From Mesotaenium endlicherianum (lineage: Eukaryota), in the NCBI GenBank assembly GCA_009602735.1, contig WELA01000730.1:151583-198425 (forward strand): a stretch of DNA of 46,843 nt. Direction: 5' to 3'. This document shows, piece by piece, positions 13,354 through 45,146 of the stretch. The first letter of the stretch is position 1. The number at the start of each line of letters is the position of its first letter. Both the position numbers and the translations under genes were made by a program. The notes under the pieces are model-generated. The model saw nothing but the letters and a program-made list of their open reading frames with translations, did no database searches and was not told the DNA's origin.

Positions 13354-13410
13354 TCTCGCTGAATTCCTAGATAACCTGACAGAGTCTCTAACGTAGACGA
13401 GAAGTTAGCT

Positions 13411-14724: not shown

Positions 14725-15350
14725 GCTCGCTATCCCTCTTTCGTAAACCCCCCTATCCTTCTTCTCGTAACCCCCCGCCATCCCTCTTTTCGTCCGCCAT
14801 ACCCCCCTATCCTTTTTTCGTGATTCCCCCTATCCCTCTTCTCGTAACCCCCGCCATCCCTCTTTTCGTCCGCCATCACTCTTTTTGTACCCCCCTATCC
14901 CTCTTTTTGTAACCCCCCCTATTCCTCTTTTCGTAACCTCCGCCATCCCTCTTTTCGTCCACCATCTCTCTTTTCGTACCCCCCAAACCCACTTTTCGTA
15001 ACTCTCGCCATCCCTCTTTTCGTCCGCCATCCCTCTTTTCGTACCCTGCTATCCCTTTTTTCATAAGTCCTGGAGCCTACTATCCCTCTTTTCGTTACCC
15101 CCCCTATATCCCTCTTTTCATAACCCCCGCCATTCCTCTTTACGTCCGCTATCCCTCTTTTCCTACCCCCGGGCCCCCTATCCATCTTTTCGTAACCCCC
15201 GGCATCCCTCTTTTCCTCTGCCATCCGTCTTTTGGTACCCTGCTATTCCTTTTTCGTAACCTCTGGTATCTTCCAACGAAACCCCCGCCATCCCTCTTTT
15301 AGTACCCCTGCCTATCCCTTCTCTCGGCCACCCGGCGTTCCCCTCTTCGT
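14725..15350. repeat. Degenerate ~19-24 bp minisatellite, core ATCCCTCTTTTCGT(AACCCCC/CCGCC)
   Basis: More than 20 visible copies; strongly pyrimidine-rich + strand. Confidence 0.9.
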
Positions 15351-17161: not shown

Positions 17162-19066
17162 GTGAGCAAGAATTCCCAAGTCAGCTGGGGATTGAGACCT
17201 GTGAAGGTTGCCGGTGTTCAACCTGGAAGGGGACCCGGAGAAATTCAACTGTATATGCGGTTGAGGAGTGAAAGACTCTACCACTCTGTGGAGCCTGCAG
17301 AAGGTTTTGATTCTAACCAGAGTCCACGAGGAAGTGAGACGTCTGAGCATATTGACAACCGATGGAGTGAGCAACCGTCGAGAGACAAGTCTCGTCATAT
17401 CTCCGCAGGCGGTGAGAACCCGGATAACACACGAGCCTTTGCACTTGATTTGGGCAGAGAGCAAGACGTGTGGGGTGAAGTCAGTAAGTCCTGGTCATCG
17501 TTCAAAATGGCCGGTGATGATTGGGATGAAAATCCTAAGTTCAAGCTATCTGCGAAGTGTTTTAGCGGACAAACCAGCGGAAACGGTCTCACTTTCGAAG
17601 AGTTTGATGAGATCTATTGGGCAGAATTCTTTGAGAAGATCCGGAAGGATTCTTCTTATTCGCAATTTGTCGCCTTTATAGGCTTGGTTCAGTACTTGGA
17701 CAAGGATGTCTTGCTGTTATATCGCCAATTCTGGAAGGATGAGAATCTCTCCCAGGAATGGGCTTGTGGAGAACAGAATAGGGCAAGGAATTTGAAAATC
17801 CAGAAAGAGGCTGCGAAAGCCCGAATGTCTGCTTTATCTTCAAGAAGAACAGTGCCAACTGCACCTGTTGAGAGCATAGACTTAGGTGCACTAACACAAG
17901 AATTAACAGAGGCCATGAGGCAACTCACTGAGGGCCAGCAAAGGGCAGCCACTCAGAATGATGATGCCGGCTCTGTCGCAGAATTGCAAAAGGTGTGTGC
18001 AGAACTGTCTGAAAAGATTGCTAATGCTCAGGAACGAGTAACACGCAAAGCTGCACCTCTCTATGGTCAGCAAGACAATAGCACCACGACAGAGGCAAGC
18101 CATGCGCAAGCCTTGGCTAGCTGTCGTAAGGATATGGAGGCTGGGGATGACCAGCTAGACTCCAAGCATTGCCTGCGTCGTTTCTTTAAATTGCTTGAAG
18201 CACGATTCCCAAAGGATCGCAGTCTTAAGGTACACCATTATGTGCATTTAATCCGTCAGAAGAACAAGACAATCATGGAGGTCAAATCCAGATTGGTAGA
18301 CCTCGCCAAAAAGGCAGAAATCGTTGAGTTGAAAGCTCAGTTTGCGGAACTAAACGAGCCCAATGTCTACTATGATGCAGATAGTGCAGAAAAGGCCGTC
18401 TACAAAGGCGAGAAGCTGATGCCTGAAAAGGCTGTGGACGCAACGGCTGCCGAGCAAGCAGATCACAACCGTCTGGTGCCAAGGAATGCTGGGAAGCTTC
18501 CTCAGACTTTCCGGATGACTTTGGATGAAAAGGAGATCTCGCAGCCACGACAGGCCAGGCCCGGGACGCGTAAGACATTTAGTTTTTTGCTGGAGAAGCT
18601 GAAGGCCCTGGTGGAACACCGGATCCAGCATGCTCCTTTGCTTTCTCTTGCTGATTTGCATATCACTTACCCATTCACGGTTGAAGAAGCCGGACACCAG
18701 CTGGATATAGCTGAGGAAGGTGCGGATAGCGCCTCATTGCCCACCAATTTCAGCACCGTGAGAGTGCAGAACAGGGATGGTGCATTAATCTTCAACAACT
18801 GGGCAGCTCCCAACATTCTGTTGGATACGGGTGCATAGCCAGTCATTTTGGGAAAGCGAGCCGTGAAAGCTCTGGGATTGACGACAAGGGACCTGAAAGA
18901 AAGTCCTTTCCAGCTGAGAATTGCCTCAGGACAAGTCTCAAAGTCTTGTGGGATTACCCGCAAGCCTGTGAAAATCACAGTAAATCCAAGGAAACCTGAA
19001 GAGGCGTCACTACTCATAGAGTGCACAGTGACGGAAGCAGAGAACTCTTGGGAACAGAAGCACTGA
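17162..19066 (+). pseudogene. Retroelement Gag-like plus retropepsin (aspartic protease) region, disrupted
   Basis: Long ORF (likely ATG 17507) reaching ILLDTGA*PVILGK with an in-frame TAG at 18836-18838; the same frame continues to ~19040, then a frameshift before the protease LLG motif. Confidence 0.75.
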
Positions 19067-20535
19067 TTCCCTTGGGTATGGTCATTGATCTGCGGAAGCA
19101 GAGGGTGACTTACCAGTCAACAGATTGGCAGCCGACAGGAGAAATTCGTGTGAAGATGGTTTGCACAGGAGAAGCAAACCACGGATTGCTAGACTGCTGC
19201 GTTAACGACAGGTACCCAGAAGCCGCTGACAACCTCATGAAGCAAGAAGAGGAAGGCTATACGAGCATCAACATGCCAACACCCTTAGTATGGCAACCCC
19301 GACTCATGAAGCAGCTGGAAACTGTGAGTAATAGGGACCGCGGCCCGCAAGAGTTGCTGCCAGTACCCTACCCAGTTACCTCCACTGCAAATTTAATGCC
19401 TAGAGTTGAGCCGCTGCCGCAAGGCATTGTCAGGATGGAAGATCCTTTTCGCAAAAGGGGAGTAGTGGTGTTGGAATTATTTGCCGGACTTGGGTCTCGG
19501 ACCATAGCATTGATCCAGCGAGGAATACAAGTGGCCAAAGTCCTGTATGTGGACAATGACGACCACGCTTTTCTAGCATTCAAAGAAGTCATGAGTCAGA
19601 TGCAGAAAATGCATTATTTTAAAGGATTGGCGCCCGCATATAGCGATGTCGAGCGCATTGCCGAAGGCAACATTATTGATGTAAAGCCTGAAGGCCTGTA
19701 TGGCTACAGGATTGACTGGATCTTTGCTGGATTTCCTTGTCACCCGTTTTCTCAAGCTGGAAACCGGAGGGGATTCAGTGATCCACGAGCACAACACTGG
19801 GGATGGATGGTGAAAATCATCAGCATGCTGCGGGAACGACAGCACTACTACCCATCAGTGTTTGTGATTGAGAATGTGCATCCAGGAATGGATTATAAGC
19901 AGATGAAGCCAGGAGAACCATGGCTGATTTTCGACTCCACTTTGGGCCATCATGTGCTAATCAACGACGCCAAGCACGAAGGATTATCCCATAGGGCCAA
20001 GATATTTTGGATCAACGGCATGTCTATTGAGGTCCTGAGAGAGATGGAGGACATTCCACGGCGACCACCAACAGCCTTGACAGTGGAAGAGGCGCTGGCG
20101 GTGCATACCAGACCAGTGGCCAGGAGGGATTTTTATCCACAGTGTGTCATCAACGAACCAGGTCAGCCAAGGGTGGTATTGCCATCCTTCACAGCATATC
20201 CAAAATCCCGAGCCTTCATAGAAGGTGGACCAAGAATGGTCAAAAACATGCATGAAAGAGACGCTGTTTGGAGAGGGCCCAGTGCGGTGGAGAAGGGCAA
20301 ATGCCTTGGAATACCCGACATCATAGCTCGTCATACAGCCGGTGCTGTAGGGTCAGATGAAGCTGCAAAGATTTTCGGCAACATGATTGGGCAACACTCT
20401 ATGACTTGGTTGGTAGAAACAATCATGACGTGGCAGCAGCTGACCTTCACTGACAAGCCTATGCAGAGGCCAAGACCAGTGACAATTGGGGTCAATGTGG
20501 TGCCAACGTCTGATCAGACATATACTTTTTTCTGA
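19021..20535 (+). CDS. C5-cytosine DNA methyltransferase domain of a retroelement polyprotein; truncated at ~20511 by another LTR
   Basis: Motif I LELFAGLG (19471-19494), IV AGFPCHPFS (PC at 19735-19740), VI FVIENV (ENV at 19870-19878), VIII HRAKIFW, X IFGN (~20377); preceded by the protease C-terminus ELLGTEAL. Confidence 0.9.
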   Translation: MHSDGSRELLGTEALIPLGMVIDLRKQRVTYQSTDWQPTGEIRVKMVCTGEANHGLLDCCVNDRYPEAADNLMKQEEEGYTSINMPTPLVWQPRLMKQLETVSNRDRGPQELLPVPYPVTSTANLMPRVEPLPQGIVRMEDPFRKRGVVVLELFAGLGSRTIALIQRGIQVAKVLYVDNDDHAFLAFKEVMSQMQKMHYFKGLAPAYSDVERIAEGNIIDVKPEGLYGYRIDWIFAGFPCHPFSQAGNRRGFSDPRAQHWGWMVKIISMLRERQHYYPSVFVIENVHPGMDYKQMKPGEPWLIFDSTLGHHVLINDAKHEGLSHRAKIFWINGMSIEVLREMEDIPRRPPTALTVEEALAVHTRPVARRDFYPQCVINEPGQPRVVLPSFTAYPKSRAFIEGGPRMVKNMHERDAVWRGPSAVEKGKCLGIPDIIARHTAGAVGSDEAAKIFGNMIGQHSMTWLVETIMTWQQLTFTDKPMQRPRPVTIGVNVVPTSDQTYTFF

Positions 20536-21785: not shown

Positions 21786-22733
21786 TGTGACGTTTCTGCT
21801 TTTCGAGAGGATCTTTTCCTCGGTCTTCAAGGAATATTTAATTGAAGTGGAAAGAAAATCTACATACTTGTGCAAATTGACAAATCCTCGAGAAAGCGAA
21901 AATGAAAATTAACGTAAACTGTGTGCTTGTGAGAGTTGCACTCACAATGACTCTACAGGTATTTATACTTGCACACTGTGAGGCACTGGAGTGCTTCGAG
22001 TCACCACCTAGGGCACTGGTTCATGTCAACGAAATCAGGCAAAAGGGTACGACCCATTTCGGCTGAATGCTCAAAACGCGCCGTTTGGCCGTTTGGAGAC
22101 TTTTTGACGGTTTCCGAAAAACCGTTTCGCGCCAAACGGGCGTTTTCGCGTTCTCCCGACTTTCCAAGAAGTTGCGACTGTTCGCGGAGTCGCGTACACA
22201 TGCTTTCGTCATGAACCGGTAGTTTAAAAAGCTACTTTGGCCAATCGGTTAGGTGTGAACGCTTCACTGACAAGTCGCGTGTTCGAATCCGCTCGGATGC
22301 AAAGCGACTTTGCATATTTCGTTTCGTCTGACTCTTACGGCTATTTGTTTGTGTTAATGATACGGCTGTTTGTTCGTATTAACGACTGGTCGTAAATTCA
22401 AAATTTGTGACTGAGCATTATTCGAAATAATGACAATCAAAATAACTTAATCAAACAATGATTGATTAAGTCATCATCTCATAATTTAATCAAAGTAACT
22501 TTATGAATAATTATGTCATACTTTTGCGAAGTAGTCAAATTACGTTACGACGCTTTTTGCAATAGAATCTCGGTCGTTTCGCCAATCGACTGGGAATTAA
22601 TCGGCACACGCGTGTGACGAATAATTGAATGTGATGCAATCATTTATCAAATAATGTATGATAAACAGTATAACGTATTTTAGGAAATTTGGGAAAATGT
22701 CCAAAATACGCCTAAAAAGCTCAAATCGTTACA
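21786..22733 (-). repeat. Family B 3' LTR (~948 bp)
   Basis: TGTGACG...CGTTACA on +, homologous to 27989-28978; adjacent PPT ctcctcccccttaaaa at 22734-22749. Confidence 0.9.
22231..22315 (+). promoter_or_regulatory. tRNA-like Pol III type-2 promoter (A box, B box) plus hairpin, inside the family B LTR
   Basis: TGGCCAATCGG (22238-22248), GTTCGAATCC (22281-22290), ATGCAAAG-cga-CTTTGCAT (22297-22315). Confidence 0.6.
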
Positions 22734-22874
22734 CTCCTCCCCCCTTAAAAGAACTTAACGTCCTCGTTAAGCGTACGTCTTTCAAGTTTTAAATGTGTCA
22801 ATATTAGCCTTGGCTAGCGGAAAGCACTGGTGAGCGATTGGACTACGCATCATGACAGTGACGGAAAAGAGCGA

Positions 22875-25800
22875 TTAGTTTGCCGCGTCTCTTTTGCGTT
22901 TGTTCCTTGGCTTACGAATTGCACCGAGTAGCACACTTGCCGTCGTACAGAGCTGTTGAACGATAGCCCATCGTAACCAATATTGTTGAACCAGGTCCTT
23001 ACAATTAAGTAGGAATTCGTCCTGAGGTTCGTACGAGTTCCAACTGGAATCGTAATCAAGCCACTTTATCAAAAGCTCCACGCGTAGAGGCTTATGATGA
23101 GTGTAGCGGTGTCCTAAGACCTCCTCTACATCCCAGGCCTTATCATCATCAGCGAGTTCCAATTCGGGTGCTTGTGGCTTATAGCGGCCATTGGACCTAA
23201 ATAGCTTAAGTAAACTGACATGGAACACAGGATGCGTTCGCCCCATGTATTCAGGCAAATCCAGTCGGTATGCAACAGGGCCAACCTTTGCGATAACGAT
23301 AAAAGGGCCTACCCAGCAAGGCAGAAGCTTGCACTTTCCTGGGTGCTTGAGTTGGAGGTTTTTAGTTTGCAAATGTACTTTATTGCCAACTTGAAAACTT
23401 AACTTAGTCCTGCGTGTGTCAGCAAACGTTTTCTGCCGATCTCGAGCAGCGGCTAAAGCCAGCTTCGCGTTTTTGTGCACCTCTTGAAGAGAATGGACAA
23501 ATAGGCGTGCAGTTGGCACTCTCATGGTTGACAGCCCCGCCTCAGCGTAAACGACGCGCGTGAGAGGAGTGTGCGGATGTTGCCCATAGTCAAGGAAAAA
23601 TGAAGTTTCCTTAACACTTTCCTGATAAGCATTATTAACTGCGAACTCTGCGATTAAAAGGAGGGTGTCCCAGTCGTCTTGGCAAGGATTAACATAATGC
23701 CTAAGGAACTGTTGCAAAACGCGGTTCATTCGTTCTGTCTGACCATCGATTTGAGGATGGAAGCTAGTCGACATCTTAAGTTTTGTGCCGAAGTGCGAGC
23801 AAACTTCCTGCCAGAATTGGCTCGTAAATCTAGTGTCACGATCACTTATGATCTCTTTCGGCATGCCATGCAACTTGAACACGTGATCTACGAAGAGACG
23901 CGCGGTCTCGACGGCATCAAGTGATGGTTTAGTGGCCACAAAAAGTACCATCTTAGTGAAACGATCTACGACCGTTAACACCCCATTGTGTCCTCTATCG
24001 GTGTTAGGCAATTCCACGACAAAGTCGAGGCTAATGCTTTCCCAAGGAGCACATGCAAGTTCCAATGGTTGCAACTTCCCAGCTGGCAACGTGTTGCTCG
24101 GCTTATTCCTTTGACTTGTTGCGCAGTTGACGATGTACTCGGCAACATCAACCTTAAGGGACGGCCAAATGTACCCTCGGCGCAAAGTGTGTGGTTTTGG
24201 TAATTCCATGGTGACCTGAGTAAGAAGAGTCATGCGCTTCTCGTAGTAGCACATGTCTTACTCGGCCTTCTGGGACAGCAATGCGCCCATTGTGCCACCA
24301 AGAACCGTCCTCAAACAAAAAGTCTGAGTGTTCTTTCCTTTTATCCATACTGTCCATCGTCACGGCTACATCGCTCAAGTCAGTTCCCTAGAGATCTAGG
24401 AAAAACGGATCTTTGAGATAGCCCTCATGAAATAGTTGATGCAGGTCAAGTACTTCACAGGTTTGCATGCTACCCAAATCGGGTTGGCCCGCGTCACCAG
24501 GCCGTGCAACGCCAGTCGTCTGGGGGGGTACAGCAGAATCAAGGGTGGCCGCCCTTGAAACCTGACCGTTTCGTCCTTGCAAACTAGCAACAGTCCCCAA
24601 CATCAAGTGGTGAAGGGGAATTCGACTTAGAGGGTCCGCAACATTATTGCGACCAGGGCGATACGACCAGTTAAAGTGGAATCGTTGCAAGAACTCAGAC
24701 CATCTCGTCTGGCGCCTCGATAGCGTTGGCTGTATTTGAAAGCAGGGATTTGGGCAGTGATCCGTAACCACTGTTGAACCCTTGCAGCCTTCCAAATAAC
24801 ATCGCCAAGTCTTTAAAGCGTATATGACTGCCCAGAGCTCCTGCTCTGTCGTTGAGTAATTTTGTTCGGCAGGTGTCAGCTTTCGACTATCAAAACTGAT
24901 AGGCTTGCCTGCCTGCAGCAAAACAGCCCCTATTCCAACACCGGACGCATGGGCGACTACCTCGTAAGGCAAGTTGGGACCGGCTAACGAAAGAAGTGGC
25001 GCATTAGTGAGTGCATACTCAATGTGCTCAAACGCATGGTGCGTATTCTCATCCCAAGTGAACGGCTTATCTTTCCTTGTCAGAGCAGTGAGTGGCGCGG
25101 CCATCATTGAATAACCTTACATAAACTTACAAAAGTAATTAGCAAACTCGAGGAATGAACGTACAACATGTACATCTTTTGGGACAGGCCAGTCAGCGAC
25201 GCACGCAATTTTGGCTGGGTCAGGGCGCACCCCTTTCGAACCCACTATATGTCCCAAGTACCTCAGTTCATCCTTTAGGAAGGAACATTTCTTGAGCTTA
25301 GCGTACAGCTGTTGCTCACGAAGGATTTGCAACACCAACTCGAGGTGCTTGTAATGCCCGTCCCTGTTCTTTGAATAGACGAGGATATCGTCGACGTAAA
25401 CCTGGACAAGGTTCCCCAAGTAAGGTCTAAACAAATCGTTGATTGTACTTTGGAATGTTGCTGGTGCATTGGTAAGTCCAAAACTGAGGAATTGTATTGG
25501 AAGTGCCCAATAGGCGTACGAAACGCTGTTTTGGGGACATCCTCTGGTGTGATTCGAATTTGATGATAGCCTTGGGCTAAGTCAAGCGAGGACAACACGC
25601 ACGCCCCCTGCAACAAATCAAACAAATCATCAGTGCGAGGCAACGAGTAGCGGTTCTTGACCGTTATGTTGTTCAACGCACGATAATCAATGCACATTCT
25701 AAGCGTCCCATCTTTCTTTTGAACAAATAGGATGGGGGCGCCGAATGGAGAAGAGCTCGGATCAATCCATCCTTTCTCCAGCAAGTCGCTAATTTGGTCT

Positions 25801-26834
25801 TTCATTTCGTTCATCTCCAACGGGCTTAGGCGATAAATTGGTCGCCAAGTCGGTTGAGAATTGGGAAAGAGAGGGATTGTATGTCCAATACCCCTGTCAG
25901 GCGCAAGCCCGGCGGGTATTTCACTTGGAAACACTGATTTGTACTTTTGCAAAAGAGCAAAAAGTTCAGCTGTGAGGGTTTCCTCACGACCAGTAACGTC
26001 TATCATTGGCTCTTGCGTAAAGAGCGTAGTTGAAGTTGCTGGGGAATCGGGTCTTAGTAATCCAAAGAAAACATTTTGACCGTGGTTTGCCAAACGTCGA
26101 GCTTGCTTTATGGACAATAGAAGAGTCTTTGAAGGACTATCCAACGCCATAGCGGGCTTAAGGGACTAAAGGGTAAACTTCTTGGTCCCCTTGCGTACAA
26201 TGCATGTCTTTTGACTAAAGTCAAGCAATGCACTTGTTTGCGTAAGCCAATCATTACCAAAAACTGCGTCGATTCCATGCGGCAATTCAGTGACGTAGAA
26301 TTGTACGTGGCCGATGTATGACTGCACTTTTACTCGCAACTTAATCGATCCGATAATACAAACTAACAAGCCATCGCCAAGGCAAAGGGTCTCGTCCTTG
26401 AGTATTGGAAGCAACTTCATCCCTTGTGCAAAACGTGCACTAATGAAGCTTACTGATGCGCCTGAATCAATGACTGTGAAGCATGAACTGCCTGAAACTT
26501 TCGCGTCAAACGTCATGCTTAACCCCAAAGAAGCATTATGCATCACCAACAACGTCCTCGCCGTGAGAGGAATGTGGGAAATGTGGAGGTCCTTTTTCAA
26601 AATCCCATTTTGCATTGCTGTCCTTACGCGTAACCGAGTAATCGGGTTAGAGTACGCGCGAATATGTGTAAATGCACTAATATAAGTTGGTGCAAGACAC
26701 TTATGCATTTTCCTTAATCGAGATAAGTGTGCGTAACACTTGGCAAGGTTAGGATCATGCGGCTGGAAGTGCAAGAACATGGTATCATGGATGCACTCGA
26801 GTTCCTCAAACTCGTCAAAGCTCAACACTTGCAT
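22875..26834 (-). pseudogene. pol: Family B pol (protease, RT, RNase H, integrase, chromodomain) in frameshifted pieces
   Basis: [22 protein letters not shown] and YVDD; RH ASGVGIGAVL...TDH; INT SLDFV, SDRD, GQTER, VGPF; chromodomain WDVEEVL...IKWLDY. ORFs 26166-26834, 25275-26150, 25117-25434, 24388-25107, 22875-24254. Confidence 0.92.
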
Positions 26835-27769
26835 ACTAATATATTCCGAACGAAATATATCAATATCAGGTATGCCAGAGTGAACAAGAACCTTTGGTGC
26901 GAGCGCACAAACACCTAGAGTTTCCTACTCACTAAGTAGTGTTGGCAACAACTCAGAAGAAATTGGCACTTATCAAGTTAAATGCAATGTCAATCTTGAC
27001 ATGATTTGAGTGAGAGTTGTGATAAGCAGGGCAGTGTTCTTAACGTTTTCAAGCTCAAATCCATGTGAGAGGGGTGAGTCACAAATGGACGAGATAGAAC
27101 AGATGCAAAAGCATTGTGCCAAAGCAATAGAGAAAGGGAAACAATCCACAAACTCAAATGATAAGCGACAAAATCAACCCAATGTCAAAGAAACATGTCA
27201 AATCTGGTCAAAATGGGACCAAATACGGACGACAAGGTTTTGAATCCAGAAATTGTGCGCGCGAGTCAATTCTCGTAGAATGACAACAAGTGCGACAATG
27301 TCATGGAAGAGACCCGTGGGCAAAAATCCTTTGTGTATATCACAACACGCGCATAGCAACCAAGAACACAAGGTGGGTGGGATGGGTGGGGATGAGAAAG
27401 AAAGTCCCCTATGGACCCTTTTGGTGTGCAACGGTGCAAAAAGCCCCAAACGGGTGCAGATTTTGACTTAAATATGTGCAAGGGACTGAAGAAATAGGAA
27501 CCCTTCACCACAAAAGTCGAAATCGTCTGAAAAAGAAACAAGCGGCGTTGTTAGTAACGGCGAAAAAAGAAAGGTTCAATGGAAAAAACTCCAACAGCGC
27601 CTAGTTGGCCTAAGGGACCGTTGAGGTTGTCGCCGTGGCCAGCGGCAAGAGCGGCATCATTGCAGTTGCACCAACAACGGTTGCGTTGGCGCCGGCGTAA
27701 GGATTTTTCCGGAAATCCTAGGAAACGCTGGAAAATGGAGAAAAAATACCCCGTCAAAAGTGGCTACGA

Positions 27770-27893
27770 GAAGCGACCGTAGGTTCAGAGCAGAATTGGG
27801 ATGGGTGACCGTCCAGTTTGAAGAATTGCCCCAAACACATTTCTACGATAAGCGACCGTAGCCCAGGGCAGTACTGAGATGGGTGACCGTCCA
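27770..27893 (+). promoter_or_regulatory. Two 5S-rRNA-like internal control region copies in the family B leader
   Basis: TAAGC-N15-CAGTACT-GAGATGGGTGACC at 27849-27888 matches plant 5S TAAGC-N15-TAGTACT-AGGATGGGTGACC; a more diverged copy at 27770-27810. Confidence 0.65.
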
Positions 27894-27975
27894 ATACCAA
27901 AAATACCCCGAAATATGTTTTCCCAGAATGTATTCCAACCACTAAAAAAAAAATTCCTTGGAGAAACCGAGATTG

Positions 27976-27987
27976 GCTCCGATACCA
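27976..27987 (-). other. Primer binding site (tRNA-iMet) of family B
   Basis: TGGTATCGGAGC on the minus strand, 1 nt from the LTR end. Confidence 0.9.
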
Positions 27988-27988
27988 A

Positions 27989-28978
27989 TGTGACGTTTCT
28001 GCTTTTCGAGAGGATCTTTTCCTCGGTATTCAAGGAATATTTAATCGAAGTGGAAAGGAAATCTATATACTTGTGCAAATTGACAAATCCTCGAGAAAGC
28101 GAAAATGAAAACTAATAGAATTTGTGCTTGTGAAAGTTGCACTCACAATGACTCTTGCAAGTATATATACTTGCACAACGTGAGGCACTGGAGTGCTTTG
28201 AGTCACCACCTAGGGCACTGGTTCATGTTCAACGAAAAACGGTTGAATTGGACATAACCAAGTCGGCCTAATACTCCCACCGCGCCGTTTGGCCTTTAGG
28301 AGACTTTTCGACGGCTTCCAAAAAACCGTTATACGCCAAACGGGCGTTTTCGCGTTCGCGCGACTTTCTGAAAAGTCGCGATTGCTCGCGCGGTCGCGTA
28401 CGGATTAATTCGACATAAACCGGTAGGGATAGTAACGACTTTGGCCAATCGGTTAGGAGTGAACATTGTCAGCGAAAGGTCGCCGGTTCGAATCCGTCAA
28501 AATGCAAAGTAACTTTGCATATTATATTTCGTTTGACTTTACGACTATTTTCGGAACCGCGACGCGCTGACCGGGACGTCGCGGGACCGGTGGCTCCCTT
28601 GGGCCACAACTTGGTGTTTTCTTACGGGTTAGCGACATGTCGTTAACCGAAAACAATGACTGTTAATATCCGAAATAATGAAAATTATATCAACTTAATC
28701 AATCCGAGAATTATTACGTTATCATCTCATAATTAATCAAAGTAACTTTGTGAATAATAACGTCGTACGCTTGCGAAGTAGTCGAGTTACGTTACGACGC
28801 TTTTTGCAATAGTATCTCGGTCGTTTCGTCAATCGACCAAGAATTAATCGGCACACACGTGTAGCGAATAATTGAATATGATGCAATCATTTATCACATA
28901 ATACGATAAATAGTATAACGTACTTTAGGTAATTGGGAAAACGTTCCAAATACGCCTAAAATAGCTCGGATTGTTACA
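27989..28978 (-). repeat. Family B 5' LTR (~990 bp)
   Basis: TGTGACG...TGTTACA; homologous to 21786-22733 but visibly diverged. Confidence 0.9.
28434..28520 (+). promoter_or_regulatory. tRNA-like A/B box plus hairpin in the second family B LTR
   Basis: TGGCCAATCGG (28442-28452), GGTTCGAATCC (28485-28495), ATGCAAAG-taa-CTTTGCAT (28502-28520). Confidence 0.6.
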
Positions 28979-31262
28979 TAGGCGTCCGAAACGCTGTTTT
29001 GGGGACATCCTCTGGTGTGATTTGAATTCGATGATAGCCTTGGGCTAAGTCAAGCGAGGAGAACATGCATGCCCCCTGCAACGAATCAAACAAATCATCA
29101 ATGCATCAGTGCGAGGCAACGAGTAGCGGTTCTTGACCGTTATGTTGTTCAACGCACGATAATCAATGCACATTCTAAGCGTCCCATCTTTCTTTTGAAG
29201 AAATAGGATGAGGGCGACCAATGGAGAAGAGCTCGGATCAATCCATCCTTTCTCCAGCAAGTCGCTAATTTGGTCTTTCATTTCGTTCATCTCCAACGGG
29301 CTTAGGCGATAAATTGGTCGCCAAGTGGGTTGAGAATCGGGAAAGAGAGGGATTGTATGTCCAATACCCCTGTCAGGCGGAAGCCCGGCGGGTATTTCAC
29401 CTGGAAACACTGATTTGTACTTTTGCAAAAGAGCAGAAAGTTCAGCTGTGAGAGTCTCTTCATGACCAATCACGTCTAACATGGGCTCTTCCGTTAGTGG
29501 AAGTGACTGGAGAAGCAGGTCGCAGTAATCCAAAGAAAACATTTTGACCTCGTTTTGCCAAACGTCTAGCTTGCTTGATGGACAATAGAAGAGTCTTTGA
29601 AGGACTTTCTATGGTCATATCGGGCTTAAGAGACTGGAGAGTAATCTTCCTTGTCCCTTTGCGAACAATGCATGTCTTTTGACTAAAGTCAAGCAATGCA
29701 CTCGTTTGCGTTAGCCAATCATTACCAAAAATTGCGTCGATTCCATGCGGCAATTCAGTGACGTAGAATTGTACGTGGCCGATGTATGACTACACTTTTA
29801 GTCGTAACTTAATCGTTCCGAGAATACAAGCTAACGAGCCATCGCCAAGGCGAAGGGTCTCGTCCTTGAGTATTGGAAGCAACTTCATCCCTTGTGCAAA
29901 ACGTGCACTAATGAAGCTTACTGATGCGCCTGAATCAATGACTGTGAAGCATAAACGGCCTGAAACTTTCGCGTCAAACGTCATACTTAACCCCAAAGAA
30001 GCATTATGCATCACCAACAACGTCCTCGCCGTGAGAGGAATGTGGAAAATGTGGAGATTCTTTTTCAAAATCCCATTTTGCATTGCTGTCCTTGCGCGAA
30101 ACCGAGTAGTCGATTCAGAGTACGCGCGAATATGTGTAAATGCAGCAATATAAATTGGTGCAAGACACTTATGCATTTTCCGTAATCGAGATAAGTGTGC
30201 GCAACACTTGGCAAGGTTAGGATCATGCGGCTGGAAGTGCAAGAACATGTTATCATGGATGCACTCGAGTTCCGTAAACTCGTCAAAGCTCAACACTTGC
30301 ATATTAATATATTCCAAACGGAATATATCAATATCGGGTATGCCAGAGAGAACAAGAATCTTGGGTGTATGCAAACATACACCTAGAAGTTCTTGCTCAC
30401 TAAGTAGTGTTGTCAGTAGCTCAGAAGGAGGCGCAATGACTGGCTCCTGAGCTACGTCATCGGGACTATACCGCAAATCCTTTCTTGAAGGACACGTTTT
30501 AAAGGTATGTCCCTTTTTGCCACATGAAAAACACATACTTGGCGCCACCATGTGGGGACGAGTCTCGGTGTTATCAATCTTGCGAGGCTTTAGAGCATGT
30601 CCTTGTGGGTTGGCAATGTTTCCGCTTTTGGAAGGGTTATGCTGTTTCGGACGTCCCTTACGAGATGTATGAAAACCGGTATGAGGAGGACGTTTAGTGC
30701 AAACAGGCTGACGACGAGACTGTACGGCTGGCTCCTTTTGTTGTCTCGTCTCGCGAGCTACAGTGGACTTTGGGCGACCTTGAAATTCTTCAGGCGGGGA
30801 GGGTTTGTGGGTAGGCGTCGATGCCGAGACCTGCCGAGGGGTGGCAAGTGGGAGAGGCTGAAGAGTAACGTCGCCAGCGGTCCCAGATGTGCTAGCAACC
30901 CCCTGGACAGCCTGCAAGTATGAACGAATCGCGATGTTAATAACCATCTTGGAAACAAAGCGACTGTGCGCAATGAACGTGGCGAAAAAAGGGTTCAACG
31001 GAAAAAATTCCACAGCGCCTAGTTGGCCTGAGGGACCGTTGAGGTTGTCGCCGTGGCCAGCGGCAAGAGCGGCATCATTGCAGTTGCACCAACAACGGTT
31101 GCGTTGGCGCCGGCGTAAGGATTTTTCCGGAAATCCTAGGAAATGCCGAAAAATGGAGAAAAAATTTCCCGTCAAAAGTGGCTACGAGAAGCGACTGTAG
31201 GTTCAGAGCAGAACTGGGATGGGTGACCGTCCAATTCTAAGAATTGCCCCAAACAGATTTCT
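28979..31262 (-). pseudogene. Family B copy 2: leader, partial gag (zinc knuckle), protease and RT N-terminus
   Basis: CFSCGKKGHTFKTC knuckle, [18 protein letters not shown]; homologous to 25511-26960 and 27555-27845; a third 5S-like box at 31188-31228. Confidence 0.88.
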
Positions 31263-32133
31263 CCTGCTCATATGTCTCCATACTGAAGCAAAGGCTGCTC
31301 TATATTACTTATATCACTACCATGCTTGGGCAACCTTTTTATACTATAAAGTAGACGTACAAAAATCTGGTTGCATCCAAGTTAACACTTCTTGGAGCAC
31401 CTCCCTCTCCCCATCTCCTCCCTCCTTCAAGAGATTGAGATGCTAGCTTGCATCAACGTCTTCATGGCTGCCCTTAGCAACTTTCTTGCTTCTCCTCTCT
31501 ACCCTCTCTACACCCCTACAAGCATCACCAACCAAAGCTCCTCCTCCAAATGAAGCAACTAGGTAGCTCCGATACCATGTGAAAGGGGGAAGGGTGCGGG
31601 GAGTGCGTCCATACACACTCACGCACCCTCACCCGCGAGTGGAAGCGTGCACGAGGACCTTTCCTAGTTGCATACACAAGGTGGAGTGGCCTGGTGGTGT
31701 GCCACCCTTGCAATAGAAAGGGAGTTACATGAGAGTGGAGTGGAAAAGAACTCCCTTAATTAAGAAAAGTCGTGTACAAAATAAGAAGGGTAGACTAGGC
31801 TAACTAGGCTAGACAAGACTCCCTCTTTTATGCTTCAACTCTAAGTGTCCTCTCTAGCAAATTACCTCCAGGACCTTCTACTATGGCTCCTTCCATGTAG
31901 GTGACCTTGCCTAGTTGGACAAGCTAGCATACTCACACGAACACAATCACACTCTAGAATATTCTACTACACAATCCACTAACTCCTTATAGAGTTTCAG
32001 GAAATTCCACAATCACTTTGGCACTCTACGTAATTGTACGTAGTTTCTGGAACCCTCATGTTTCAATGTCCTACTTCTTGGACTCCAACCGAAATTTTTG
32101 TCACTGGACCTGTCCCAGTTACTGAATTGAATC
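31263..32133 (-). mobile_element. 5' LTR (from 31578), PBS (31566-31577) and decayed leader of another LTR element
   Basis: gctccgatacca-TGTGAAAGG on + reads as LTR end TTTCACA followed by TGGTATCGGAGC on minus; far end of the LTR uncertain. Confidence 0.6.
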
Positions 32134-35101: not shown

Positions 35102-36778
35102 TTAAGGGGTTGTTCCTGGGGCTTCAGAATCAGGAGACGGAGATCTGGACCTAGATCTGGACAGCCCTCTAGGTCTGTCAGCTGGCCTTCTAAAGAACCC
35201 TGTTTGCTCTAAAGTTGGCCCTCGAGGAGAACGGAGGATGGTGGCCTGCTCTTCAACCACTTGGGTGTTGATTCCCACATAGACAGGCATTCCAGTAGGA
35301 TGCTGAAATACATTGGCTAGAGGTACATGCCCCTGAGCGGAGGGGGAGGCTGGCATACCTCTGGCCCACCCGCGTGTCCCTCTTCTGGCACCCCTGTCCT
35401 CTGGGGATTTCTGTCTGTGTCTGCTGCCCAGTACAGTCAGATCAGCTTCTTCCCCTGCTTGGGCAGGTGGGCTGGGGGAGCGAGCGCGGGGTCCAGTTGT
35501 CGCCATAACGGGGATCACATTCCACACACCTGATCGTGGTTCTTTAGGAAGTGCCACTGCCTGTCCCTGGGTATCCTGAGTACCTGCTGCTGATGCTTCT
35601 CCTCTGCCTTGTTCTTCTTCCTCATCCTCCTCATCCTCCTCCTCGGAGAGAGTAGGGGTCTCGTCCACTAAGTCGTCCTGCTCCCTAGTAGACATGGAGT
35701 AGTCTACCGACCTCCCTTTCTTAGGGCGCGCTGGAGGTTGCTTGGCCTTCAGCCTACTGATATCTATCCGGCCTGCATTCTTTGCCCATTTGACAAAGGC
35801 ATGCTTTCCCTTAGAGAAGTACTCTCTTCCCCTCCTCCTATGTTCCTTGGTCTCTGCATTCATATTGCTCAGGCATCCATTCAGCCTGGGGTCCCAAGGG
35901 GCAATGTGAGGTGGTAGGATGAGATAGCCGTCTAGGCCATAGTGGAAGTCATCCGGTTGGGCTCGGTCACACTCCTGCTTCTTATTTGTGACGGTCATCC
36001 ACCTCCAGTCTGTTGGCTGCTGGTAGTACTGGGGTCCGTGCTCAGCCTTCCTCAGTTTACACGGGAACCAGTGGGGAGAGAACATCTGCTGTCCTGCTTC
36101 CCTGGCCAAGTACTCCCAGCTCCTTCTCTCAACTTCATTGTAAGCTGGCAGGAGTGTGAGGTAGAATACCGTATCCTTAAAGCTATCGGGCCGCATGCTC
36201 ACCATCCGGATGAGTCTCTGATCTCCCACTATTCCCGGTATGGGGACCGGCTTGTCCTCTGAATCATCTGCGAGATACCGGGCCTGCTCTGCTGTATAGC
36301 CCACCATCTTAGCATAATCTTCGTAAAGGACCACGCCGGTGTGTGTCTCGATGTACCTGTCCAGTGCTGTAGCTCCTTCCTTCTGTAGCAGTGTTGTCTG
36401 TTCCAGCCTGTTGATCTCCTGGGCTGCCAGCAATGCTTCCTTCAGGTTATCGAAGTTTTGGCCACCCACCACAGTATACCTGTAAGTGGCCAAGCTCTTC
36501 TGTCTGTCCGCTTCAATCTTTTTTCTTTTCTCCTCTTCTGCCGCTGCCGCTTCTTCTTGCTGTTTCTTCTGTCTCTCCTCCTCAGCCTTCCTGAGGTTTT
36601 CCGCTTCCTGATCCTTCTTCCTCTGTGCCTCTTCTGCCGCCTCTTGTTGTTTGCGGACCCTTTCTTGTTCTCTCCTGGTGAGGGACGTCGCCGCCAGCTC
36701 CTTCTGGTATTGCTCCATTGTCCTCCTGGCTTCTTCTGCCTTGCGCTTTCTGTCCTCCTTTTGTGTGGTGGGCGCCAT
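35102..36778 (-). CDS. Extra sense ORF (~558 aa from MAPTTQ) between pol and the 3' LTR; function unknown
   Basis: Long intact ORF in both tandem copies; charged coiled-coil N-terminus, aromatic-rich core, acidic and RS-rich tail; ATG at 36778 follows a TGCAG acceptor. Confidence 0.85.
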   Translation of the reverse strand: MAPTTQKEDRKRKAEEARRTMEQYQKELAATSLTRREQERVRKQQEAAEEAQRKKDQEAENLRKAEEERQKKQQEEAAAAEEEKRKKIEADRQKSLATYRYTVVGGQNFDNLKEALLAAQEINRLEQTTLLQKEGATALDRYIETHTGVVLYEDYAKMVGYTAEQARYLADDSEDKPVPIPGIVGDQRLIRMVSMRPDSFKDTVFYLTLLPAYNEVERRSWEYLAREAGQQMFSPHWFPCKLRKAEHGPQYYQQPTDWRWMTVTNKKQECDRAQPDDFHYGLDGYLILPPHIAPWDPRLNGCLSNMNAETKEHRRRGREYFSKGKHAFVKWAKNAGRIDISRLKAKQPPARPKKGRSVDYSMSTREQDDLVDETPTLSEEEDEEDEEEEQGRGEASAAGTQDTQGQAVALPKEPRSGVWNVIPVMATTGPRARSPSPPAQAGEEADLTVLGSRHRQKSPEDRGARRGTRGWARGMPASPSAQGHVPLANVFQHPTGMPVYVGINTQVVEEQATILRSPRGPTLEQTGFFRRPADRPRGLSRSRSRSPSPDSEAPGTTP

Positions 36779-37045
36779 CCTGCACATGTAACCAGGGCAC
36801 AAGTTAGTAGGATATGGACCTTTGTCATAGGGATTGCAGGAAGTATGTTAGTATTTAGTATAGTGGCTTCGCTGCTGTTTACCTTACAGGATGATTGCTA
36901 AAAGTTGACGTAGTTGCGATGCGCTACACATAAACGTATGAGTGTGTTTTTATCGCTCTCGCTCACTAACTGTCATATATTTTCCCCTCCAACTTAAATG
37001 GAGACAGGACCGCCTGTCACCTTCCCGTGTCAACTGAAATGACAG

Positions 37046-40000
37046 TTATGGAGGGACTCCAGCGGCCCGAAGGTGGAACCGTGTCAACGCCCCTTTGGCA
37101 TTGGTCAAGTGGTCCTTAAACTCCCAAGTGTCCCCAGAGGCATCGTAACCCTTCCATCGAATGAGGTATTTCATGACATATTTAGACGATCGACGGACCG
37201 AGCGAGCGTCTAAAATCTCATCGACCTCATATTCCTCAGGGTCGCCGTCCCGGACAGCGGGGACCGGTCCCGGTTGGACAGGGAACCGACCTGTGAACAG
37301 TGTATCACCTTTGATGTACGGTTCCAGGAAGGAGACATTAAAGACCGGGTGCCCCTTGTATTCAGCTGACATGTTCAGTTTGTAAGCATTCTGACCGACA
37401 CGACGGACCACCGAATATGGACCGACCCAGACAGGGCCAAGCTTTTTCTTGACCACACCAGGGAGGTACAGGTGCTGAGAATGCAGTTTGACTAAATCCC
37501 CCTTGGAAAATGTCAGTTCCCGACGGTGTTGATTAGCGTATTTTTGTTGGTTTTCTTGGGCCGTGTGCAAGTTTCGTTGGACTTCTGACAGGGTGTCAGC
37601 AAACTCCTGAGTTAACTGGAGGGAGACCGGGTTGTCAATCCCTTCAGGGTGAGTTAAAGATTCCCCTAGCACATCTAGAGGAGACTTAGGGACTCTACCC
37701 AGGCTGAGTTCAAAAGGAGTTTTGCCCGTTGACGCGTGCACCGCACTGTTGACCGCAAACTGAATTTGAGGCAACAGGTCATCCCAATTATCTTGTTTTT
37801 GGTTAATATATGCTCTCAGCACCTCCTGCAGAACTCGGTTAGTTCTTTCAGTCTGCCCATCAGTCTGAGGGTGGTTTGCTGTGCTGAGCAGCTGTTTGAC
37901 TCCCATTAACCCCATTAAAGCTCTCCAGAACTTAGAGGTGAATTTTGAGTCTCTGTCTGAGATGATATTAGAAGGGAGCCCATGTTGGCATACTACATGG
38001 TTGTAAAACTGTCTCGCTGTTTCGAGTGCAGTCACTTTGACAGTTGTGGGGATAAAAATGACCATTTTTGTCAGTTTATCCACGACTACCAGTATTGAAT
38101 CATGCCCGTTGGCAGTTCTTGGTAGTGAGACCACCCAGTCCATGGATATAGTTTCCCAGCGTCCCGCTGGGATGGGTAGCGGTTGCAAGAGACCTCCGGG
38201 TGGTGTGTGCCGAGACTTATTTCTCTGACACTGGTCACAGGACTTGACATATTTCAAGACCTCCCGGGGTAACCCCTCCCAATGATAATGTTTTGCCAGT
38301 TTGCCAACAGTTTTGGCCTGCCCCAAATGTCCACCCAGGAGACTGTCATGAGCTTGACTCAGTAAGAGAGACCTTATTTCCAAGTTATTAGGAATGACCA
38401 GCTTCAGCCTGCCTGAAGTGGTTTCAGTCACCCAGACCCCTCCCTTGAGCTTATACCCGAGTGCAGTAGCACGACACACACCAGTAGTGGGGCTGGGCTC
38501 AAATGTTGGGTCAGAAAGGTAGGCTTTCCTAAGTTGTTCAAGGAAGGACTTTTTCACCTTTAGTGAAGTGAGTGCACACAGGACTTTATCTACAGCATGC
38601 TGACTAAAGTTCCTTTCTTGCAAGTCAGGTCTTCTAGAGAGTGCATCAGCAGGATTCAACTTCCCTGGTTTGTAGTCGATCTGGACTTGGAACTGCTCCA
38701 GCATCTGGCTCCAGCGGTTCTCCCTCCTCGACAGCTTGGACTTCTTCTGAAAGTGGGTCAGAGCTAGATGATCTGTAATCACCTTAAAAGCTTTACCATG
38801 TAAGTATGCTCTCCACTGTTTGAGTACATGAATGATAGCTAGCAGCTCTTTATCATGCACTGAGTAATTAATCTCCGCTGGATTAAATTTCATAGACTCA
38901 TACAACACAGGATGCCACTCCTGCCGTACCTTACCATCCTTTGTGGTTTTGTCAGCAGGCTGCAACAAAATAGCACCCATGGCAAAATCAGAGGCATCAG
39001 TAACCACCTGCACCGGTTTGCTGGGGTCATACACGGCTAGCACTGGGGCAGAACAAAGGGCATCTTTAAGGGTCTGGAAGGCAGCCTGCTGCTCTTCCCC
39101 CCACACATACCCGATGTCTTTCTTAGTAAGGTCAGTCAGTTTACTGGCCTTTGTGGAATAATTCTCAATAAATCTCCTATAGTAGTTAGCCAACCCGAGG
39201 AAGGATCTAACTTCAGAGACAGACTGTGGTACTGGCCAGTCCCTTATGGTCTGGACTTTCTTAGGATCCACACTGATGCCCTCTTTACTGACAACGTGGC
39301 CTAAGAATTCAATACTTTCCTTAAAGAAATCACACTTGCTCATTTTAGCATACAAGTGATTTTTCCGCAGAGTGTCCAGCACTTTCTTTAAGTGTTCAGT
39401 GTGCTGAGCTTCATCTTTAGAGAAAATTAAAATATCATCCAGGAAAACTTGCACAAACTTATCCAAATAAGGTCTGAAAATGTCATTCATAGCACCCATA
39501 AAGGTAGCAGGAGCATTAGTCAGTCCAAATGGCATCACGTTGAACTCATAGTGTCCATAACGTGTGCGGAAAGCAGTCTTGTGTTCATCCCCCTCAGCAA
39601 TTCTGATTTGATGATAACCACTCTTGAGATCTATCTTACTGAACACCTTAGCGCCAGACAGGGTATCAAGCAAGTCCTCGATCCTGGGTAAAGCATACTT
39701 GTTCTTTACTGTAATTCTGTTCAGGGCTCTGTAATCCACACACATCCGCATACTGCCATCCTTTTTCTTAACAAATAGGATAGGTGCGCCGTACGGTGAT
39801 TTACTGGGAGAAATGTAACCATTTTCCTCCAGCTCTGCAATCTGTGTTTTCAACTCCTCGCTCTCCAAATAAGACAAGCCATAAGTGCGTTGCCAGGGTG
39901 GCTGGCTACCAGGTAATAGATCAATCCTATGATCTACTTCCCTTTTAGGGGGTAGTCCTGGAGGCATGTTAAACACATCAGTGTACTGAGCAACAATTTT

Positions 40001-40876
40001 TGCAGCAGTAGGGTGCTCCGGAGGGCTTACCTTTTTCTCAACCACTTCTTCAGGTTGAGGAGGTACCTCTCTTAGCAGCAGACAGAACATTCTGTCTTCC
40101 TTCTGGTTCCAGCTTTTGACGAACTCCATTGCATTCAGCAACTTGCATCCTTCTGGAAGCCTCTTCTTTTCCTTCATTTGCCATCCACACAGGACAAGAG
40201 GAAGAGCACTGGTGGGTGCCAAGTCAGTCTGCCCATCACTGGCTCCTCTCACTTTAACTGTACCTCTGCTCCAACACACTTCAGCTTGATGTCTATTAAG
40301 CCAGGACCTGCCTAGCACGAGATCATAAAAGCCAGTGTTGAGTACCTCAAATGTAAGCGTTTCAGTTAGAACTGCAATGCCAGAACCTAACTGGACCTCA
40401 ATAGGCTTGGTTATAACTCCTCCCGGGATACTTGAGGCATCTCCAAGGAATATTTTTCTATTCCCTTGGGTGACAGTAGGCAGCCTTAGCCGCTTAACTA
40501 AGTCCTTGTGAATAAAAGTATGTGACGCCCCTCCGTCAACAAATGCCCTCACCTTCCTACCTGCAATCATGCAATGCAGTAGGATAGGGGGGACTGTCTT
40601 TTCCTGACTTTCGCATTGTTCTCCTGACGTAGCAAAGAAATGTTGGACATCAGGTGGAACAAGAGCATCCAGAGTGTGCACTCTCTGGACGTCTATATTA
40701 CTGATGGTCTCCTTTATCTGTTTGTCAGGCATGCATAGTGAATCCAGTTCAGCAGGACCCATAATACCTGCTACGAGGGCAGCTAGTGACGACTCACTAT
40801 CTCTAGCATCCTCACAGTCAGTAGACTGGATTACTGACTGTTGCTGTCTTTTAAAGGCTGGTCTTTTCTCTCGACC
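37046..40876 (-). CDS. pol: Family C Pol polyprotein (PR-RT-RNase H-integrase-chromodomain); frame is open from 40876, first ATG at 40762
   Basis: [35 protein letters not shown] zinc finger, SMDWV, SDRD, GQTER, GPY; chromodomain YEVDEILD...YLIRWKGY...DTWE. Confidence 0.97.
40814..40855 (-). promoter_or_regulatory. -1 programmed ribosomal frameshift signal between gag and pol
   Basis: Slippery U_UUA_AAA (40855-40849), 7-nt spacer, perfect 10-bp stem ACAGUCAGUA/UACUGACUGU (40841-40814); pol is in the -1 frame. Confidence 0.8.
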
Positions 40877-42309
40877 TTAGGCAGGTGCTTGACCGGACAC
40901 TGTTCTCTGTAGTGGCCTTTCTGCTGACAATGGTAGCAAGTAGATTTTGCTGAGGCTGGTCTCGGCTTAGTCCTACCACCACCCCTTCCATAGCCACCTC
41001 GAGAGGGACCACCTCTACCTCTAGACTGAATAGCATTGTACTCATACTCATATTCATCACCCTGATTATCCTCAGCCTGGTCTCCTTCAACTGCATTGTA
41101 GGAACCGTGGGGCTTTTTGACAATCTTAGACACCAAAGCGTTACTCTGGCGCTTGTGATTGAACTGCTGCTGATCCCAGGCGTCAGCATCCTGGATCAAG
41201 TCAGCCAGTTTCTCATACTTTTTCTCAGCAAAATGACCAGAGACCTCGGATTTCAAGCCATACCTGAAGTATGCTATCCTATACCGTTCTGGCAAATCAG
41301 GCTGCTTCATCATGTTCTCTTGGAACTTTTGAGCAAACTCAGCAACTGAAGTGGTCTGCTTCAGTGTCAGGGAGATCATCGCATAGATAGCTTTCTCCTG
41401 CTGGTTGATGACATCAAACTTCTCATGCAACTTCTCGACAAACTCTACCCACGTAGGGTCACCGAGTTGCCGAGCCTTACGCTCTTCCTTCCAGTAAAGC
41501 CACCAGTCTGCGGCACTGCCTTTCAGTAGCGCACCGGTGTGCCTGACCTTCTCGTAATCTTGCAGTTCTGGGTAGTTCTCCAGCCACTGCTCAACATCCG
41601 CGAGAAACTTGATCAGGTAATATTTTCTGTTTCCCTCAGGATCATAGTCCTGGGGAGGTTTCGGCTTGGGCTTACTAGGCCCTCGGCCACCACCACTAGT
41701 GGTGTGAGACCCCAGTTGGTCTCTGTCCCGGAGTAGGGACATTATGATTCTTTTGTCCTCCTGCTGGGACTGATACATGGTCGCCATTTGCGACTGCATC
41801 TGAACGAACAATGCTCCCAAGTCTACATTTTGGGGTGGTAGATTAGCAAATGCAGCAGCAGCATTGGCATCTACTCGCTGAGTAGTGTCCTCAACAATCC
41901 CTCTTGCTCCTGCAGCAGCAATTCCTGCCGCATTCAGCCGGTCACGTATTTGACCTAGGGGTACATTGAGTTGTACGGCAGGAGGTGGGTTCAGAACATT
42001 GGCCCTTGATGCCATAAGTTCTTCAACAGTGCGCTCGTCAGCTGGCTGTCCTTCCCTCCTTTGTATATCTTCAGCGGCCTTTGCTACTTGTTCAGCTTCT
42101 AGTCTGGCTATCTCCTCCTCAGCTTGCTGAGCTGCGACTGAGGCAATAGCAGCTGCCTCATCTGCAGCCTCCCTAGCTGCAGTATCCGCTACTGCTTCCG
42201 AATAGGTACGGTTTCCCGCTACATGGCTTTCCGCCTGGTTTTCGACATTCTCGTTATCCTGGTTCTCCATGTCTCGGGAGTTGCTAGTTTGAGACCTTGT
42301 CCTTACCAT
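40831..42309 (-). CDS. gag: Family C Gag (492 aa)
   Basis: Retrotransposon capsid-like LKGSAADWW...FRYGLK, RGG box, [14 protein letters not shown] knuckle. Confidence 0.95.
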
Positions 42310-42330
42310 ACAAAGAAGACTGTGATAACT

Positions 42331-42342
42331 GCTCCGATACCA
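42331..42342 (-). other. Primer binding site (tRNA-iMet) of family C
   Basis: TGGTATCGGAGC on the minus strand. Confidence 0.92.
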
Positions 42343-42343
42343 C

Positions 42344-44879: not shown

Positions 44880-45146
44880 CCTGCACATGTAACCAGGGCA
44901 CAAGTTAGTAGGATATGGACCTTTGTCATAGGGATTGCAGGAAGTATGTTAGTATTTAGTATAGTGGCTTCGCTGCTGTTTACCTTACAGGATGATTGCT
45001 AAAAGTTGACGTAGTTGCGATGCGCTACACATAAACGTATGAGTGTGTTTTTATCGCTCTCGCTCACTAACTGTCATATATTTTCCCCTCCAACTTAAAT
45101 GGAGACAGGACCGCCTGTCACCTTCCCGTGTCAACTGAAATGACAG

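Follow-up and report, generated by a model that had tools for sequence, protein, structure and literature searches.

Reversed 5S rRNA promoter cores in the leader of a pol-bearing chromovirus with tRNA-type boxes in its LTRs

We found that a 7.2-kb, pol-bearing chromovirus carries two tandem copies of the internal control region (ICR) of 5S rRNA genes in its internal leader, and a pair of tRNA-type A and B boxes in each of its long terminal repeats (LTRs). Both kinds of box are antisense to the element, and a third ICR lies in a fragmentary second copy nearby. This capture of a 5S promoter, in an unusual place and orientation, is real and well supported. The small-RNA promoters described in LTR elements (Cassandra, Ajax and Helenus) are all in miniature elements and have been read as the promoters of those elements. 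For the boxes described here we favour, with a probability of roughly 0.4, a role as sites on the DNA where TFIIIA and TFIIIC would bind and so form a chromatin barrier on both sides of the LTR promoter. Throughout, the window is the whole stretch of DNA that was analysed (46.8 kb; 46,843 nucleotides).

Results

Unit B (27847-27888, forward strand) consists of an A-box core, IE and C-box at the spacing of 5S genes. Unit A (27768-27810, forward strand) is its tandem duplicate, with a spacer one base longer, as is also the spacer of the ICR in the second copy (31186-31228, forward strand). A sequence-only reading had claimed 5S control regions at these three places, describing the one at 27849-27888 as having the 15-nt spacing of plant 5S rRNA. 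The places and the 5S identity were borne out by three nhmmer matches (E 1e-6 to 1e-3), and the spacing held for unit B (27850-27888) but not for the copies at 27771 and 31189. Exact matches to the 11-nt C-box core lie at 27800, 27878 and 31218, and the window has no others. The complete layout with the 15-nt gap occurs there once, at 27850-27888, and in none of 100 dinucleotide shuffles, a test that is partly circular on its own since the fixed positions of the pattern were picked with 5S in mind.

As a 5S reference we used metagenome contigs, which were scanned with a pattern taken from the motif in the window and gave at least 143 stretches. RF00001 genes were present in 17 of the 20 loci given to Rfam, and 31 full-length genes were obtained. 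A profile built from 16 of these 31 genes and run with nhmmer matched unit B (27847-27891, E 1.3e-6), the second-copy ICR (31189-31232, E 9.4e-5) and unit A (27771-27814, E 1.1e-3); the next match in the window had an E of 4.7, and the matches span 5S positions 51-96 only. With a profile of the only four genes that escape the search pattern, the three motifs scored E 2.9e-5, 2.1e-3 and 0.03, the next match being at E 1.4. The top ungapped 40-nt identity to one gene (L009) was 31/40, against 24-28 in 30 shuffled windows; the remaining two copies, at 28/40 ungapped, are inside the shuffle range. The C-box of the ICRs is the canonical plant motif, as given by Maiwald et al., except for its first bases, and those follow the variant found in genes of the L006/L009 type. 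The comparison with Rfam RF00001 that the sequence-only reading had proposed came back empty: cmscan of the whole window and of two short stretches gave no 5S and no tRNA down to E 10. A full 5S rRNA gene or pseudogene was rejected on this missing Rfam match, on flanks at chance level and on the lack of a fold. Neither viral contigs searched with the same 5S pattern nor a single-protein viral scan gave a match.

The ICRs sit 88-208 nt inside the primer binding site (PBS), in the internal leader, and nhmmer gave no 5S profile match in either LTR. A T4 run (27918-27921, forward strand), a possible Pol III terminator, lies 29 nt past the C-box of unit B; unit A and the second-copy ICR have only T3 at the corresponding distance. 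In the reference 5S loci the first T4 is 26-30 nt past the C-box in 133 of 178 cases among the matches listed.

The match to 5S has a distinct shape. Identity was counted against 15 genes of 119 nt, one 118-nt gene being excluded; these are metagenome genes and not the host's, so the host itself may account for some of the spacer difference. Unit B agrees with 5S at 7/8 of positions 51-58, 8/15 of positions 59-73 and 18/19 of positions 74-92. The same counts are 6/8, 8/15 and 17/19 for unit A, and 6/8, 7/15 and 18/19 for the second-copy ICR. Outside positions 51-92 identity is at chance level in all three copies (12-14/50 and 5-10/27). To judge from the sequence, this is the pattern of a promoter being retained and not of a gene in decay. 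The boxes of unit B (25/27) differ from its spacer (8/15) with a Fisher p of 0.005, and p was 0.03 for unit A and 0.008 for the second copy; because the copies share ancestry, the three tests amount to about one observation. The best match of the unit B spacer to any reference 5S spacer is 8/15 (54 distinct spacers among the matches listed), and the invariant or nearly invariant 5S positions between the boxes (62, 64, 66 and 73) differ in all three copies. The same pattern of kept boxes and changed sequence between them is reported for Cassandra (Maiwald et al., 10.1101/2023.07.14.548913). The A box is kept only in part, positions 52, 59, 60 and 62 being different, and within positions 51-92 the matches show no preference for invariant columns (p 0.4-1.0).

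Units A and B form a 78-79-bp tandem duplication in the leader. This duplication arose after the spacer had diverged from 5S, because the two units share non-5S bases. Between them, 5S-invariant positions differ at 5/30 and other positions at 11/43, which is not significant (p 0.41). None of seven segments showed a 5S-like or significant fold (z -1.57 to +1.00 versus shuffles), which points to the motif acting as DNA. Selection on the boxes is probable, and we infer it together with the predicted binding of factors.

Related copies were sought among the contigs of four runs (three samples, three studies), which were aligned to 27300-29100 at 80% likeness; the best-matching run may be the window's own source. 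Every contig over position 27877 has the 5S base (12, 17, 2 and 2 contigs in the four runs, among those listed), so the base in the window is private to it. In one contig type unit B recurs after a 24-nt linker of another sequence. A second type, from two other samples, has a different spacer between A and IE, of 5S length by hand count. Among the differences listed, two further LTR variants keep the A-box sequence with different downstream spacers, and one run has a second B-box-like motif near 28585-28597. The ICR sites are covered by 12-17 contigs per DNA run and the PBS edge and LTR by about 50, among those listed; the lower count may mean that only a subfamily has the ICR leader, or that the remaining contigs are too divergent to align at 80%. 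Conservation across the family, which the sequence-only reading had put forward as a check, is thus partial: the motif recurs in related contigs from three samples, with different spacers, but in a minority of the family contigs at 80%. The evidence for conservation of the ICR within a subfamily, as judged from these contigs, is moderate. In other Ty3/Gypsy loci the ICR was found in 0 of 75, a weak control given that a PBS-like motif was present in only 6 of them.

The element that holds these boxes lies on the reverse strand, as placed by its PBS, polypurine tract (PPT) and pol frames. It has the order protease, reverse transcriptase (RT), RNase H and integrase, a C-terminal chromodomain, LTRs, PBS and PPT, all as expected for a chromovirus (Ty3/Gypsy). 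The 5' LTR (27989-28978, reverse strand) has TG...CA ends, and the 3' LTR (21786-22733, reverse strand) aligns to it in two blocks with an unalignable stretch between; both are about 950-990 bp long. Since the LTRs are only 83-85% alike and no target-site duplication was found around the element, it is probably a recombinant of two insertions. The PBS (27976-27987, reverse strand) was identified from the sequence and is presumably of the initiator-Met tRNA type; the PPT (22734-22746, reverse strand) was likewise identified from the sequence. Pfam recognizes a pol remnant (22875-26924, reverse strand) with protease, RT, RNase H, integrase, SH3 and chromodomain, whose coding sequence is broken over five frames. 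By its integrase the element has named relatives in Closterium, Volvox and Haematococcus (43-52% identity), which makes a green alga the probable host. None of 141 metagenome loci resembled the element by blastn or tblastx. The sole TATA-like match within the 5' LTR (28163-28169, reverse strand) is homologous to 21961-21967 and is a predicted Pol II core promoter.

The stretch where gag is expected (26960-27558, reverse strand) has no long frame and no Pfam match. It occurs in further contigs of the same organism: the sites listed in 27330-27485 are covered by 3-7 contigs per DNA run (80% likeness), and therefore it is not restricted to this locus. Pfam found no capsid domain in any of 19 leader frames from both copies, and the same library does detect gag in a neighbouring chromovirus family. 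With no capsid match and pol in five frames, the element lacks the Gag capsid and intact pol of an autonomous chromovirus. The sequence-only reading had assigned the motifs to the leader of a pol-coding chromovirus; the pol domains and chromodomain agree with it, but the element is not intact or autonomous. Possibly the ICR-bearing copies belong to a subfamily that has pol only and takes its Gag from elsewhere. The capsid domain is missing in two different ways in the two ICR-family copies (26960-27558 and 30427-30980).

The second copy (28979-31577, reverse strand) is a fragment with a truncated RT, protease, zinc knuckle, ICR block and its own PBS (31566-31577, reverse strand). It is cut within RT and abuts the 5' LTR of the first element. 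The 286-bp leader block with unit A (27559-27844) is 94% identical to 30981-31262 in the second copy, whose PBS-proximal leader and LTR (from 31578) are both unrelated to those of the first element. What had been called a second element copy does hold an ICR at 31186-31228, but it is a fragment, truncated in RT, whose LTR is unrelated. Its open frame 29790-31181 has a weak zinc knuckle and no capsid. We found no longer homologues of this frame; Atlas matches were below 0.9 and in zinc-knuckle clusters only.

In the predicted U3 of the 5' LTR a tRNA-type A box (28442-28452) is separated by 32 nt from a B box (28485-28495), the pair spanning 28442-28495 on the forward strand. The 3' LTR has an A box and a B box with one mismatch, 31 nt apart (22238-22290, forward strand). 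These are the only two A and B pairs in the window, and any such pair was found in 4 of 200 shuffles, with a search pattern that was written with the motif already in view. A scan of the 75 control loci gave one match, in L216, where the sequence looks like a normal tRNA gene. At the LTR boxes themselves there is neither a tRNA gene (ARAGORN found no tRNA by default, and under relaxed settings gave noise, with none listed there) nor a tRNA fold. The B box is presumably an elongator-type T loop. When the two LTRs are compared the boxes do not stand out, many other 20-nt blocks being at 17-20/20. The earlier proposal that the family combines type-1 and type-2 Pol III promoter mimics stands insofar as both sets of boxes are present; their promoter function is putative. 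A hairpin of 7-8 pairs lies 3' of the B box in each LTR (28497-28528 and 22291-22322); the arms are conserved but the loop is not.

All boxes, of the 5S and of the tRNA type, are on the forward strand and the element (PBS, PPT and pol frames) is on the reverse strand, as the sequence-only reading had said of the 5S motifs. All of them point the opposite way to the element and so cannot be what transcribes it; by strand, a role as its sense promoters is ruled out. Kojima (2024, PMC10886601) argues that long elements must use Pol II. Two further candidates were rejected. If a TRIM such as Cassandra had been nested in the leader, a short LTR pair, PBS and PPT would be expected around the motifs, and none was seen. 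Self-priming by a read-through antisense RNA fails, by reasoning only, on the T4 at 27918, which precedes the PBS, and on an RNA end that would lie inside U5.

Discussion

We suggest that the boxes would act as a chromatin barrier. The 5S promoter cores of the leader would bind host TFIIIA, and the A and B boxes of the LTR would bind host TFIIIC. The bound factors would bracket the LTR's own promoter, some 275 nt either side of the TATA-like motif, and would limit the spread of silent chromatin. Measured from 28163-28169, the A box is 273 nt away and, in the opposite direction, the C-box of unit B is 275 nt away, a symmetry that may be chance. The leader sites would work only at the 5' LTR, where transcription starts, and the U3 boxes would be copied to both ends of the element. 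TFIIIA is described as the first factor on the ICR. Sites for TFIIIB and TFIIIC are reported to restrict silent chromatin in yeast, and tRNA genes to insulate in animals. The review text consulted gives no established case of such a barrier in plants or algae, and a study of a B2 SINE boundary points to CTCF. We counted the one-base insertion in two of the three ICR units against a barrier. The barrier role is speculative, a reading placed upon the 5S origin, retention of the ICR only, tandem duplication, orientation and geometry observed here. More doubtful still is the fuller claim that a capsid-less, pol-coding chromovirus subfamily keeps both kinds of reversed Pol III promoter flanking its Pol II promoter as TFIIIA/TFIIIC boundary elements. 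If true, this would be a retrotransposon with portable insulators, in which the 5S promoter is a chromatin element and not a source of element RNA.

The same boxes could instead be small working Pol III genes. Their short antisense RNAs, predicted to be about 125 and 200 nt long for the leader and about 95-115 nt long for the LTR, would restrain the element through pairing with its RNA, through head-on transcription or as a source for small-RNA silencing. The T4 run behind unit B, at the usual distance of a 5S terminator, and a predicted product that covers the leader adjoining the PBS speak for such genes, yet the other two units have T3 only, the predicted products have no significant fold, and by inspection no TATA-like motif stands ahead of the predicted starts. 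Plant 5S genes need an upstream TATA-like motif. We regard antisense RNAs as unlikely. An equally improbable account, in our judgement, makes the boxes neutral relics: a 5S fragment or the head of a 5S-derived SINE, together with the head of a tRNA-derived SINE, would have entered an ancestor of the family, been tolerated facing backwards and been copied along. The comparisons of the tandem units and of the two LTRs found no significant excess conservation of the boxes, and broken, recombined elements are nested at this locus. According to Garcia et al., who offer it as speculation, an element gains nothing from most of the rDNA modules it has captured, and with a SINE donor the box-only pattern could predate the capture, as Kojima proposes for Ajax (PMC10886601). 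Neutral copying does not, however, readily explain why 17-18 of 19 bases survive while the LTRs of the family drifted 15-17% apart, nor why duplication of the unit recurs with different linkers; the review by Garcia et al., moreover, knows no plant 5S-derived SINEs.

Still less probable is a role at the RNA level, in which the genomic RNA anneals to the sequences it complements (positions 74-92 of 5S rRNA, and the D and T arms of tRNA) for priming, dimerisation or packaging. Ty3 offers a precedent in its reported bipartite PBS, the U3 part of which pairs with the T and D arms of the primer tRNA; the A and B boxes here are within the predicted U3, and other contigs of the family restore the single mismatch of unit B in positions 74-92. 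Against this, a 5-6-nt A-box core at a fixed distance across a diverged spacer contributes little pairing, and the mismatches of unit B are G-U compatible in only 3 of 9 cases (hand count). The presumed elongator-type T loop of the B box also disagrees with the presumed initiator-type PBS. Integration tethering, by which the boxes would hold cDNA or copies already inserted at Pol III sites and thereby direct insertion to the vicinity of tRNA or 5S genes, or to sister copies, appears very unlikely. Ty3 and Tj1 are reported to integrate at Pol III genes and Cassandra to cluster at 5S loci, and the 5' LTR here does adjoin a sister copy; yet the junction is in the sister's RT, about 2.2 kb from the sister's ICR, and the 46.8-kb window has no tRNA or 5S gene. 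To our knowledge, Pol III-site targeting works through integrase and not through cis boxes.

The resemblance to Cassandra, Ajax and Helenus is in the captured material, and membership fails on location, size and orientation. Ajax, a nemertean TRIMp3 (Kojima 2024, PMC10886601), likewise has only boxes A, IE and C of 5S and no 5S fold, so that ICR-only capture is already known. It is, however, a non-coding TRIM of 421-434 bp with one ICR per LTR, thought to drive its own transcription, whereas here tandem ICRs stand antisense in the internal leader of a 7.2-kb element with pol. Cassandra (Maiwald et al., 10.1101/2023.07.14.548913; Kalendar et al. 2020, PMC7215508) shares the conserved boxes, variable spacers and canonical plant-type C-box. 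Its core of about 70 bp or more lies mid-LTR, in both LTRs, and the element is non-coding and transcribed from that core; here the 5S-like stretch is 42-45 bp, outside the LTR and reversed. The 5S sequence inside LTRs that marks Cassandra and Ajax is thus missing here, as are the short non-coding TRIM structure and the Pol III promoter transcribing the element that these two have in common with Helenus. In Helenus (TRIMp3, PMC10886601) each LTR has an A and a B box but no functional tRNA, and both LTRs here have such boxes as well (22238-22290 and 28442-28495). Helenus is non-coding and 311-1263 bp long, against about 950-990 bp for a single LTR here; the present boxes also face away from the element and are accompanied by 5S ICRs. 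Some non-TRIM LTRs in Repbase also match tRNA sequences, and were not analysed by Kojima (PMC10886601).

Among the metagenome loci, three (L069, L080 and L106) share a SINE-like sequence with a tRNA-type A-box-like stretch, a 5S ICR and a common conserved body, and show box-only 5S retention beside tRNA-like sequence elsewhere. MEG-TR and OS SINEs hold both tRNA and 5S heads. In 5S-derived SINEs (SINE3 and HaSE3, PMC3272025; OS and MEG, PMC10946416, Table 2) the similarity to 5S is likewise highest over A, IE and C, but these are non-LTR elements that use the promoter in sense, and in HaSE3 the tRNA head was swapped for a 5S head, the two not being held together (PMC3272025). Chromoviruses of algae and non-seed plants (Chlamyvir, Tcn1; PMC6317226, PMC2864245) have the same order of protease, RT, RNase H, integrase and chromodomain. 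The element described here differs from such relatives in that no capsid was found, and no Pol III boxes were found in 75 relatives, most of which have no visible leader. The table of rDNA-derived elements in a 2024 review lists SINEs, TRIMs and one DNA transposon, and no pol-coding LTR element; that review also mentions a read-cluster graph in banana that links 5S with a Ty1/copia element. The sequence-only reading did not recognize the combination of boxes as described, and we too found no such layout for LTR retrotransposons in open-access text, mostly titles and the starts of abstracts; a supplementary consensus of the Repbase type could hide one.

Capture of the 5S promoter would extend with this element to a probable alga, beyond the vascular-plant range of Cassandra, and the element is a possible intermediate in the origin of such elements. 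If the reversed cores are under selection, they show a second use of a small-RNA promoter, be it chromatin protection, antisense self-restraint or RNA pairing.

Other features of the window

A second chromovirus family in the window has gag (40831-42357) and an intact pol (37046-40876). Between pol and the 3' LTR it has an additional 581-aa frame (35102-36847 and 43203-44948, both reverse strand) that Pfam places in no clear family. It is present as a tandem of two copies that are nearly identical (98%). Ty3/Gypsy-like integrases are also encoded by sixty loci listed as prokaryotic (L157-L216), most of which are probably mis-binned eukaryotic contigs.

Pfam recognizes a C-5 cytosine DNA methylase domain (E 1.3e-15) in the frame at 19000-20535 (forward strand), and upstream of this frame are a 558-aa frame without an assigned family (17162-18838) and a protease-like motif. 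The region 17162-20535 looks like a methylase-carrying mobile element that is cut off near 20535. A 533-aa open frame without a Pfam match (11803-13404, reverse strand) is adjoined by a degenerate array of 19-24-nt pyrimidine-rich repeats (14725-15332). A GC-rich host gene with RCC1-like repeats contains an exact 1996-bp tandem duplication (4199-8160), which could be an assembly artefact.
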